A DNA stretch of 46,021 nt from the sequence record OR472559.1. The stretch is one strand, 5' to 3'. The DNA is from Pseudomonas phage Arefeen1. Positions 40,645 to 42,132 of the stretch are shown in pieces. Positions within the stretch are counted from its first letter, which is position 1; every line of letters starts with the position of its first letter. A program made the position numbers and the translations under genes. The notes under the pieces were generated by a model that was given only the letters and a program-made list of their open reading frames with translations, did not search any database and was not told the origin of the DNA.

Positions 40645-41465
40645 GATATTTCTTTGATAATCACACGATTTACCCGACGAACGGTATGATAGGGTTCTAT
40701 AGGTATACCCTAAGACTACCCTTCGTAGGTTGCTGGTAAGGGGTAAGTGGCATAGGGTTCCCTTGATCCAGGTTCTATAGGTATACCCCCTAGACTACCT
40801 CTGTTTGCTATGTCCTGGCCTATTGCCCCTTTATCCAGTAATATACCAACAGGTATCGGAGGTTGCCTTTGATCCAGGGCCTATAACCGGGGATACCCCA
40901 AAAGTCTATTTTATCCTCCGGTGTATCTGGGGAATATCCCCCCAGGAGTCCCCCAGATAAAGTGGGGGTGGCCTATCCCCAGGGGTATAGCCCCTAGCCC
41001 CTCCCTAGGATACCATAAGGCTAGTCCGGGGGTCAACCCCTTGAGCTACCGTTCATCGGATAGACCCTAGGGTATTCATAAGAAAAATCTTAGGGTATTC
41101 AGGGGGTGGATCGGGGGGAATATCCCTTGATAACCCCTTGATCCCCTATTGACATCCCACGATACCCTATGTTAATCAAAGACTGTCTATCTCCGGGGGT
41201 TTGCTGGGGGACTGATAGTCCTTAGACTGTATAAAAAACCAGTAGACAACCCCGTAAAGAATATGGCCTAATGGCGCCGCCTTGAGGGAAACCGATAGGC
41301 AACGGGGGGAAACCCCCGGGGGCTTGACAAACCCCGCGGAACCCGGCCTAATGGCCGCACGTTCTACCTAGGCCACCATCCCCCTTGCCGAAGTGCTATC
41401 CGGGGGCTGCCAACCAGGGAAGAGCGCCCAAGTCACCCAAGTGTAAGGCCGGCAGGCATCGGGGG

Positions 41466-41494
41466 TTGACAAGGGGTAGGGGAAGCGGTATAGT
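41466..41494 (+). promoter_or_regulatory. candidate plus-strand early promoter TTGACA-17-TATAGT
   Basis: Read directly; weaker TTGACA boxes at about 41321, 41549 and 41671. Confidence 0.4.
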
Positions 41495-42018
41495 TCGCCC
41501 CACGTCAACGGCATAACGTGCATGACTCCCTCGGGATTAGCGTAGCCTTGACAATAAGCGGACGTGTTGGTCCGGGGCGGTGTAGATAGGGCGCCTTGTT
41601 TATATCCTAACTACAAAGCTATGACTCTAGCCGATAGGATTGGTCCACCACGTAAATACAGACGGACCACTTGACAAGCCAAGCCCGAGGCTCTAACATG
41701 GGCACCCATTAGGTGACGGCCACCTAGGGGAAGTGTACCCTCGACGGTCCTTGGACTGAACAGGGGAGAAACCCGAAAGCTGAGGGAATAGCGCATACTC
41801 CTTTAGAGCGCTGGCTTTGAAAGTCGCTGCCTTATGACTTTCCGACTGGTTGCCTGCTCCAGCGTAAACAATTAGCAGAGTCCATGGTGGAATCGTGATG
41901 GACAGTATGTTGGGTTAGTATCGTTGGCTTAGCGCTGAGGGCGAAGCTTGGTAGATACTGGCGAAGGTAGGGGCGAGGGATTCGAAGACCCCCGAGGATA
42001 GCCAGAGGACAGACCATA

Positions 42019-42038
42019 ACGAGGATACTAACGCGGAA
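42019..42038. other. candidate cohesive-end (cos) / genome terminus sequence
   Basis: TAACGCGGAAAGGGGCCGGC is the reverse complement of the 20-nt 5' overhang I recall being reported for phage PaP3; it sits about 95 bp upstream of the first early gene. Confidence 0.45.
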
Positions 42039-42132
42039 AGGGGCCGGCTACGCCAATGCCAAGGTTTGCCGACTAACCCCTTTATCGTATCGTAGTGTGT
42101 GCTACGGCTGATGATTCCAAAAGGATGAAACG

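Follow-up and report, generated by a model that had tools for sequence, protein, structure and literature searches.

A probable control region at the joined genome ends of Pseudomonas phage Arefeen1 and its conserved structured leader RNA

What does a dense phage genome keep in a long stretch that seems to encode nothing? This question is raised by Pseudomonas phage Arefeen1 (sequence record OR472559.1), whose 46,021 nucleotides (nt), read on one strand from 5′ to 3′, are called here the window. An initial annotation, made from the sequence alone, had pointed to about 1.5 kb without any open reading frame (ORF) of 60 amino acids (aa) or more and rich in repeats, and had proposed it as a candidate replication origin, packaging and terminus region with early promoters reading across the genome end. 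Our analysis indicates that this gap is probably the control region of the joined ends of a LUZ24/PaP3-like podophage, built in three layers: packaging and termini, transcription, and a leader RNA. The terminal repeat, its boundary sites and the promoters are already known biology for the genus, and what we add for them is their precise position. Most of the interest lies in the leader RNA, a large element with strong covariation support, no match in Rfam and no description in the literature that we searched on these phages; it would be the first thing that they transcribe.

Across 40380-42140, the sequence has matches in 95 phage records (83-96% identity), nearly all of them Pseudomonas aeruginosa Bruynoghevirus. 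Since the gene layout also fits this genus, the sequence identifies Arefeen1 as a circularly assembled member of it. The two ends of the window (1-127 and 45895-46021) are identical over 127 nt, as is typical of the overlap left by an assembler working at k=127. The record therefore corresponds to a circular assembly of a unique genome of 45,894 bp, in which any terminal repeat would be collapsed to one copy. A plus-strand arm spans the window start and reaches up to ~21 kb, and a minus-strand arm runs from ~40.1 kb down to 21.2 kb, leading with four tRNAs (Pro, Tyr, Asp and Asn; 40044-40372), then TerS, lysozyme and TerL. Between these arms the non-coding stretch is real, but wider than first described: without tRNA or conserved ORF, it covers 1.76 kb (40373-42132), from the end of tRNA-Asn (40372) to the ATG at 42133. 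Contrary to the first description, two ORFs of 61 aa lie in it on the minus strand (41611-41796 and 41832-42017); both are intact in 0/9 aligned relatives, and among the 14 gap ORFs that reach 25 aa not one stays intact throughout the nine. Annotations of related genomes conflict on strand and position of small ORFs here, while the records of LUZ24, PaP3, Epa4, Ka1, PaCe and PaP_Se have no called ORF at all in the equivalent gap. A protein-coding explanation of the gap was rejected, given the lack of any such ORF intact across relatives and the disagreement of annotators. Four metagenomic Bruynoghevirus-like contigs (L084, L085, L087 and L088) also leave 1.6-1.9 kb free of called genes from TerS to the first early gene, apart from a 50-aa call in L085; a long non-coding end region would thus be a conserved trait of the wider group. 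Divergent TTGACA clusters are present in this gap of L084 and L087, and there are almost none in L085 and L088.

The right-hand 430 bp of the gap, which the initial annotation had included in an array of binding sites, are instead occupied by a structured RNA that overlaps none of the repeats listed at that time.

41700-42132, plus strand: structured leader RNA of the early operon, ~430 nt and ~22 helices, supported by covariation among 17 distinct homologues
41905-42036, plus strand: central multi-helix domain, basis of the covariance models R1 and R2, with matches in other phages

The first sign of this RNA was a set of paired substitutions between allele types, seen when ten relatives were aligned over 41700-42132. 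In an alignment of the 17 distinct homologues (A3), the RNAalifold consensus has 108 pairs in 22 helices, and 99.7% of the cells are standard pairs. Fifteen pairs (83 cells) are changed on both sides, as against 0-2 pairs when the 3′ partners were slid by 1-3 columns, and the observed compensatory value was reached in 0/500 shuffles. When the structure was re-predicted on 40 column-shuffled alignments, the energy was -89.0 ± 5.3 against -126.3 observed, with 2.1 compensatory pairs (maximum 4) against the 15 observed. Single helices tell the same story: the hairpin 41880-41903 exists in five different stem variants with pairing kept in all, one U-A pair has been lost jointly from both sides (a paired insertion/deletion), and the hairpin at ~41817-41841 is swapped wholesale for other hairpins among homologues. 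The folded strand is the plus strand, because G-U cells are common (198) and A-C cells rare (3); pairing reaches 99.7% on this strand and 89.1% on the other one. We hold it for nearly certain that 41700-42132 is a conserved structured RNA on the plus strand. Its transcription is predicted by a consensus promoter immediately upstream: the leader extends from the predicted start site of the promoter at 41671 to the ribosome-binding site that precedes the first early gene. Three scans of Rfam 15, at the gathering score and down to E = 10, returned only tRNAs and chance-level matches, for families including group I intron, RNase P, riboswitches, GOLLD and ROOL. A resemblance to group I intron or RNase P (GCGGAAAGGGG) was supported neither by Rfam nor by helix topology.

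The same RNA is found in phages of other groups. Matches to the covariance models are full-length, at 53-60 bits, with rough E-values of 1e-9 to 1e-13 depending on the search. Model R1 recovers phiKMV-like Autographiviridae such as LKD16 (1561-1688, 52.8 bits) and vB_PaeA_SB (54.3 bits), as well as phiKMV, Ab05 and others from IMG/VR. A degenerate-pattern scan combined with the broader model R2 added a third lineage, an environmental Andromeda-like T7-type contig (L079, 59.7 bits), where the RNA lies after the genome junction and before a phrog_1448 gene. Genome records that contain the RNA number 73 for Bruynoghevirus and 89 for phiKMV-like phages, with LUZ19, phiKMV and PaP3-type phages among them. 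The unpaired motifs GUAUG, AGAUA, AAGGKUA and AGGAYA are kept across phage families, and the apical loop of the next domain, GCCAAURCCAAGGUUUG, is also kept in phiKMV-like phages. The phiKMV-like leaders covary among themselves over the whole ~480 nt, and there the element stands after five early promoters and before the first genes. In LUZ19 its homologue (1308-1749) lies just downstream of the early start sites mapped at 913, 1147 and 1248 (PMC3604761). Exact 20-22-mer searches of IMG/VR and JGI metagenomes gave only 1 and 2 matches, a protein-based locus search found 1, and an IMG/VR 17-mer scan gave 46 loci, mostly chance, among which only phiKMV-like ones passed the covariance model. In bacteria, no copy turned up in two exact-pattern scans covering 185,579 species genomes. 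ORF0.1 of LKD16 (1600-1755; 51 aa), named gp0.1 in LUZ19, partly overlaps the leader RNA homologue; when its frame was carried onto the aligned window sequence, it stopped after 17 codons. Because of the covariation pattern and because Bruynogheviruses have no matching ORF, ORF0.1/gp0.1 of phiKMV-like phages may not be a real gene.

The packaging layer lies in the left and middle parts of the gap, around a homologue of the direct terminal repeat (DTR) of the genus. In the following lines, ^ marks the putative cut.

40693-40710 and 40771-40788, plus strand: 18-bp direct repeat GGTTCTATAGGTATACCC, two exact copies 78 bp apart (0.04 expected by chance)
40760, 40866 and 41135 (exact) and 40827 (one mismatch), plus strand: CCYTTGATCC, flanking the terminal repeat (40760-41144), with CTAT after each copy
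40929-40940, no strand assigned: left DTR boundary site, GGGGAATATC^CCCCC, putative cut between 40938 and 40939
40939-41121, no strand assigned: DTR homologue of 183 bp, single copy in the circular assembly, by homology to the LUZ24, Epa4 and Ka1 repeats
41115-41126, no strand assigned: right DTR boundary site, GGGGGGAAT^ATCCCTTG, putative cut between 41121 and 41122

The DTR of LUZ24 (184 bp; 1-184 = 45442-45625, the same at both record ends) maps to 40939-41121 with 91% identity, the Epa4 repeat_region maps onto the same positions with 94%, and the terminal repeat of Ka1, annotated at 1-183, falls in the same place. At least seven independent genome records start or end at 40938/40939 (Ka1, Clew-6, WRAIR_EPa83, WRAIR_EPa87, C1-14_Or, 1429 and PhiCHU), and 41121 corresponds to the right end of the FJK record. 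The terminus and packaging reading of the initial annotation is thus borne out, with record ends coinciding with both boundaries. The left one reads ..GGGGAATATC^CCCCCAGG.. and the right one ..GGGGGGAAT^ATCCCTTG.., both inside copies of GGGGAATATCCC (40929 and 41115) that are the sole two exact copies in the window. The ends of phage tf have been mapped biochemically and GATATCcc was proposed as the terminase core; its boundaries are GGATATCC^CCCC and GAGAT^ATCCCTTG, with GATATCCC at both (PMC3517423). GGGGAATATCCC is the counterpart of this core. Because the LUZ24 DTR edges, the record ends and the tf core coincide there, we read the GGGG-AATAT-CCC mini-hairpins at 40929 and 41115 as the DTR boundary sites. 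In the distant metagenomic relative L087, whose early protein is ~54% identical, GGGATATCCCCCC and GGGGAATATCCCTTGACA stand 199 bp apart, with a repeated GGTTCTATAG motif upstream of this pair. We are confident that 40939-41121 corresponds to the DTR of the genus and that the promoters flanking it are real.

The repeats reported by the initial annotation largely stand. The GGTTCTATAGGTATACCC copies form an exact and non-random pair, at a spacing of 78 bp rather than 80, located between the leftward promoters and the terminal repeat; relatives have 2 or 3 copies, and the equivalent ORF-free gap of L087 and L084 also has the core (G)GTTCTATAG in repeated form, with 185-202 bp between copies. These copies would be candidate protein-binding (packaging) sites, for which recognition by terminase is plausible. 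CCYTTGATCC, announced in four copies, has three exact ones and a fourth (40827) with a mismatch; all are on the plus strand, no exact copy exists elsewhere in the window, and like GGTTCTATAGGTATACCC the motif is kept in relatives. The copies of GGCCTAATGGC (41265 and 41345) and TAGGGTATTCA (41068 and 41091) were found as described, two of each. The mini-hairpins, said to be at least four, occupy five distinct places: GGGG-N3-5-CCCC occurs at 40889, 40929, 40982, 41028 and 41304, out of 10 in the whole 46 kb, with 8 overlapping matches in the gap against 0.1 in shuffles, and GGGG and CCCC runs are 3-4 times enriched there.

The sequence is homologous to mapped ends, and cutting and recognition might proceed as follows. 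In virion DNA, 40939-41121 would be duplicated at both ends as a DTR of ~183 bp. Terminase would cut concatemers at the two (G)AATATCCC copies, as GAATATC^CC on the left and GAAT^ATCCC on the right, and duplication of the repeat would follow, in the manner of T7-type packaging. The nearby direct repeats (GGTTCTATAG.. and CCYTTGATCC) would most likely be the terminase recognition sites.

The transcription layer flanks the terminal repeat on both sides.

40411-40439, minus strand: leftward sigma-70 promoter proximal to tRNA-Asn, TTGACA-17-TATAAT with TG, 12/12, aligned with LUZ24 promoter 44882-44917
40607-40635, minus strand: second leftward sigma-70 promoter, TTGACA-17-TATAAT, 12/12, aligned with LUZ24 promoter 45080-45115
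41229-41465, plus strand: near-invariant non-coding block, conserved in 10 relatives including LUZ24
41466-41494, plus strand: early sigma-70 promoter, TTGACA-17-TATAGT, 11/12, aligned with LUZ24 promoter 517-552
41557-41704, plus strand: 148-bp stretch matching the phiKMV-like early-promoter spacer (LKD16 1151-1296) at 80-88% identity
41671-41699, plus strand: last early sigma-70 promoter, TTGACA-17-TAACAT, 10/12, putative start site ~41704-41708

A consensus promoter scan (-35 and -10 hexamers, 16-18 bp spacing) gave 7 sites against 2.7 expected. Of the 18 TTGACA copies in the window, 7 are within 1.24 kb: five on the plus strand (41149, 41324, 41466, 41548 and 41671) and, just to their left, two on the minus strand (40434 and 40630). 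The initial annotation had counted four plus-strand boxes, one with a good -10; the boxes are there, one more than counted, and in addition to TATAGT at 41466 the TAACAT at 41671 is good, while 41149, 41324 and 41548 have no convincing -10. The two perfect minus-strand promoters had been omitted. That early promoters exist here is supported by the alignment of 41466 and 41671 with annotated sigma-70 promoters of LUZ24, but the promoters do not read across the genome end: the DTR has the plus-strand ones on its right and the minus-strand ones on its left, and all point away from it. The leftward cassettes are duplicated as a 61-nt direct repeat (40402-40462 and 40598-40658, 72% identical), the promoter at 40411-40439 being in an AT-rich stretch with a GC content of 0.30-0.38. 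The cassette TTGACA..TAnnATGGGCACC of the 41671 promoter is common to LUZ24 (621-656) and LKD16 promoters. The block 41229-41465 holds TAGACA-18-CCTAAT, TTGACA-17-CCTAAT and a GGGGGAAACCCCC palindrome, and may contain two weak promoter-like units, of which the GGCCTAATGGC copies would be the -10-like parts. In LUZ24, four promoters were confirmed by ONT-cappable-seq, though which four was not assigned to the annotated sites (PMC10914365). The sigma-70 promoters predicted here would all fire away from the DTR, so that each arm of the linear DNA is read inward from its own end. After injection of linear DNA, each arm would have its own end-proximal promoters: the two leftward ones, used by the host sigma-70 polymerase, would serve the tRNA, terminase and structural arm, and the two good rightward ones, of the same type, the early arm.

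In the 148-bp stretch 41557-41704, the first ~114 bp are an insert absent from LUZ24, PaP3 and Epa4. The similarity of the stretch to phiKMV-like phages points to a recent exchange of DNA between the two phage groups. A hairpin followed by a T-run lies inside the stretch at 41579-41605, where part of the transcription from the 41466 promoter may stop and yield an RNA of ~100 nt. A third copy of the leftward-promoter cassette is located in the middle of the structural arm (25662-25799, minus strand), upstream of a 1055-aa ORF (22480-25647); the right-end promoter region of LUZ24 and PaP3 matches it at 84-93% identity, and its TTGACA is at 25785-25790.

How would the leader work? The first ~430 nt of the rightward early transcript would fold into the conserved multi-domain RNA, followed by the ribosome-binding site. 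Acting in cis, this RNA could protect a long 5′ stretch that is not translated against nucleases and termination by Rho, and could tune expression of the early operon. The conserved unpaired motifs suggest a specific partner. With structure and conservation established, a cis-acting structured leader appears to us as the most likely function, a view that we hold weakly.

Several observations weigh against this overall picture. The assembly is circular with a single repeat copy, and duplication at the virion ends is deduced from relatives. PaP3 cohesive ends have been reported at the equivalent of 42029-42048, in conflict with a pure DTR model (PMC3488191, PMC7672466). The single-sequence minimum free energy of the leader (-145.3 kcal/mol) is close to that of shuffles (-144.2 ± 5.4; z = -0.20), and neither strand is significantly stable as a single sequence. 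Two recombining allele types make up most of the homologue set, so that some compensatory changes are inherited and not independent. Alignment A6 of the two phage groups has compensatory change at 16 of its 32 modelled pairs and pairing in 95.2% of cells, but it had been fitted to the model. The RNA domain was not detected in LUZ24, tf and four distant Bruynoghevirus-like contigs (none below E = 0.1), and the element would therefore be dispensable for the genus; the four distant relatives keep an ORF-free gap of 1.6-1.9 kb. As for the cis-protective role, it is a guess. LUZ24-type phages (NC_010325, 650-1025) have a different leader of ~370 nt between the last early promoter and gp1, with 8 pairs showing compensatory changes (among 4 sequences only) and TAGCCATCCG present twice.

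The site reported for PaP3 needs closer attention.

42029-42048, plus strand: exact reverse complement of the published PaP3 ‘cos’ 20-mer, unique in the window (sequence from PMC3488191, PMC7672466, PMC8540360)

This 20-mer lies within a 44-nt block (42029-42072) invariant in 17/17 homologues, and the RNA model places it across the junction where helices H12, H18 and H19 meet. In PaP3, 20-nt 5′ cohesive ends were reported at this site, together with binding by TerS (p01) and cleavage by TerL (p03) of a 239-bp fragment in vitro (PMC3488191, PMC7672466). Packaging could then start from a cos site at 42029-42048, and the conservation of 42029-42072 would reflect DNA recognition by terminase and not RNA structure. 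The exact match inside an invariant block fits this idea, and so do the PaP3 experiments: TerS bound cos239 (~41917-42150 of the window, by primer sequences) but left the neighbouring 239 bp unbound, TerL and TerS together turned a cos plasmid into linear DNA (PMC3488191), and TerS preferred the 20-mer over scrambled DNA (PMC7672466). Yet phage Delta, which belongs to the PaP3 species and has the 20-mer, showed no cohesive-end behaviour and a 182-bp DTR (PMC8540360), and DTRs are located ~0.9 kb away in LUZ24, tf, PAA2 and Ka1. Moreover, the helices holding the 20-mer are kept by compensatory change in phiKMV-like phages, where the 20-mer sequence itself is lost (CUACAGGGAC..), and the 428-bp terminal repeat of the LKD16 record occupies 1-428, upstream of the early promoters and of the RNA copy. 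Because phiKMV-like phages keep the helices but not the 20-mer, and the LKD16 repeat is upstream, the evidence favours an RNA-level constraint on 42029-42072, with an added DNA-level role possible in PaP3-type phages; we consider packaging from cos unlikely in Arefeen1. Alternatively, the compensatory pattern could come from hairpins in single-stranded DNA, for instance a signal for lagging-strand priming or packaging. The region is near the genome end, terminase proteins bind its DNA in vitro (PMC3488191), and Watson-Crick covariation alone does not separate DNA from RNA. On the other hand, the asymmetry between G-U and A-C cells fits RNA, or else DNA of the plus strand only, and in three phage lineages the element comes directly after a consensus promoter and ends at a ribosome-binding site, so that we give this explanation very little credit.

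The initial annotation had also read the repeats as iterons of an origin, where an initiator would bind the direct repeats and unwind adjacent AT-rich DNA. An AT-rich stretch (40350-40700, GC 0.30-0.38) indeed adjoins the direct repeats, and the promoter-associated AT-rich region that serves T7 as primary origin illustrates that promoters and an origin can coincide. The cumulative GC-skew, proposed as a check, does have its minimum near the region (~40.4-41.4 kb), but this minimum is uninformative on replication because it coincides with the switch of coding strand. The AT-rich stretch is fully explained by the two consensus promoters with their upstream A/T tracts, no DnaA box (at most 1 mismatch) occurs in 40373-42132, no initiator gene is found among the genes adjacent to the gap, and the Bruynoghevirus literature that we searched reports no origin data for the region. 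With no specific evidence in its favour, the origin reading seems improbable. A more serious competitor concerns the function of the leader, which could mainly be a trans-acting non-coding RNA, made within the first minutes from strong host promoters and neutralising a host factor such as an RNA-binding regulator, nuclease or defence sensor instead of serving the genes downstream. The unpaired motifs and the apical loop are kept across families while stems drift, the element moves as a module between unrelated phages, and transcription from the leading end would reach it before anything else. Against this, no terminator or obvious processing site separates the leader from the first ribosome-binding site, the same bacterial scans found no host copy or target, and related phages do without the RNA. 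We regard a mainly trans-acting role as a possibility to be taken seriously, without preferring it to a cis-acting leader. A bolder version, somewhat speculative, would be a new class of phage RNA acting on the host at the start of infection, as decoy or inhibitor of a host RNA-binding factor or defence system or as a ligand-sensing or catalytic RNA, exchanged as a module among unrelated Pseudomonas podophages and including the PaP3 ‘cos’ as part of it; we hold this for doubtful.

Downstream of the leader, the early operon also has relatives outside the genus.

42133-42924, plus strand: first two early genes, 101 aa (phrog_14276) and 160 aa (phrog_1448), directly downstream of the leader

The phrog_1448 gene is the second early gene here, gp2 in LUZ24 and the third ORF after the RNA in phiKMV, and its homologues follow the RNA in phiKMV (42% identity to the window protein) and L079 (39%). 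Bruynoghevirus, phiKMV-like and Andromeda-like phages share this conserved protein, encoded close to the left end (42442-42924 here; L040 2268-2801; L079 2119-2655; LUZ24 1208-1762); it has no sequence match in Pfam or PDB. PaP3 ‘orf70.1’ is described in the literature as an early protein that binds RpoS and inhibits growth (PMC5035744). By coordinate conversion it would fall at ~42419-42811 on the minus strand, inside an ORF at 42082-42882 and antisense to the two early genes, and its gene status may deserve a second look. Elsewhere in the window, TACTRTGMC occurs nine times exactly, always on the plus strand (938, 3224, 5189, 10073, 16485, 20581, 25304, 42943 and 44366), where about one copy is expected. 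This motif may be the nick-site consensus of LUZ24-like phages, and, if this is true, the virion DNA of Arefeen1 probably carries single-strand nicks. Localized single-strand nicks are documented in phage tf (PMC3517423).

A Bruynoghevirus has been reported in a commercial therapeutic phage preparation (PMC8540360). The leader RNA may account for the inconsistent small ‘hypothetical proteins’ annotated in this region, including gp0.1/ORF0.1, and it suggests another interpretation of the PaP3 cos site as published. More generally, it provides a concrete element for asking how phages that depend on the host polymerase protect or regulate their earliest transcripts.

How does this region compare with known systems? 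The closest one is the DTR of LUZ24-like phages (LUZ24, tf, phiIBB-PAA2 and Delta), with which Arefeen1 shares a repeat of nearly the same sequence (183 bp, 91% identical to that of LUZ24), a duplicated boundary core (AATATCCC here, GATATCCC in tf), and flanking divergent sigma-70 promoters next to the TerS-lysozyme-TerL arm. It differs in that the repeat is single, due to the circular assembly, while LUZ24 and tf lack both the PaP3 cos 20-mer and the leader RNA. With the PaP3 cos site, the likeness is an identical 20-mer at the same place, ~85 bp upstream of the first early gene; here, however, it lies ~0.9 kb from the DTR homologue, inside the helices of a covarying RNA, and no cohesive ends were seen in the sister strain Delta, which has the same 20-mer.

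The left end of T7 and phiKMV displays the same order of DTR, tandem host promoters and early genes. The likeness goes further with phiKMV-like phages, which have one 148-bp promoter cassette in common with Arefeen1 (80-88% identical), and with phiKMV, LKD16 and LUZ19, which share with it the leader RNA and the phrog_1448 early gene. In contrast to the T7 and phiKMV phages, Bruynogheviruses have no phage RNA polymerase, use an unrelated terminase of P22/Sf6 type, and possess a second, leftward arm with its own end-proximal promoters. Finally, the leader recalls the put antiterminator RNA of HK022 and the GOLLD and ROOL RNAs, being likewise phage-borne, non-coding, promoter-proximal and conserved by covariation. 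It has no sequence or model similarity to them in the Rfam scans and shows no sign of antitermination; and while HK022 put consists of two stem-loops, the leader is far larger, folding over ~430 nt into some 20 helices.

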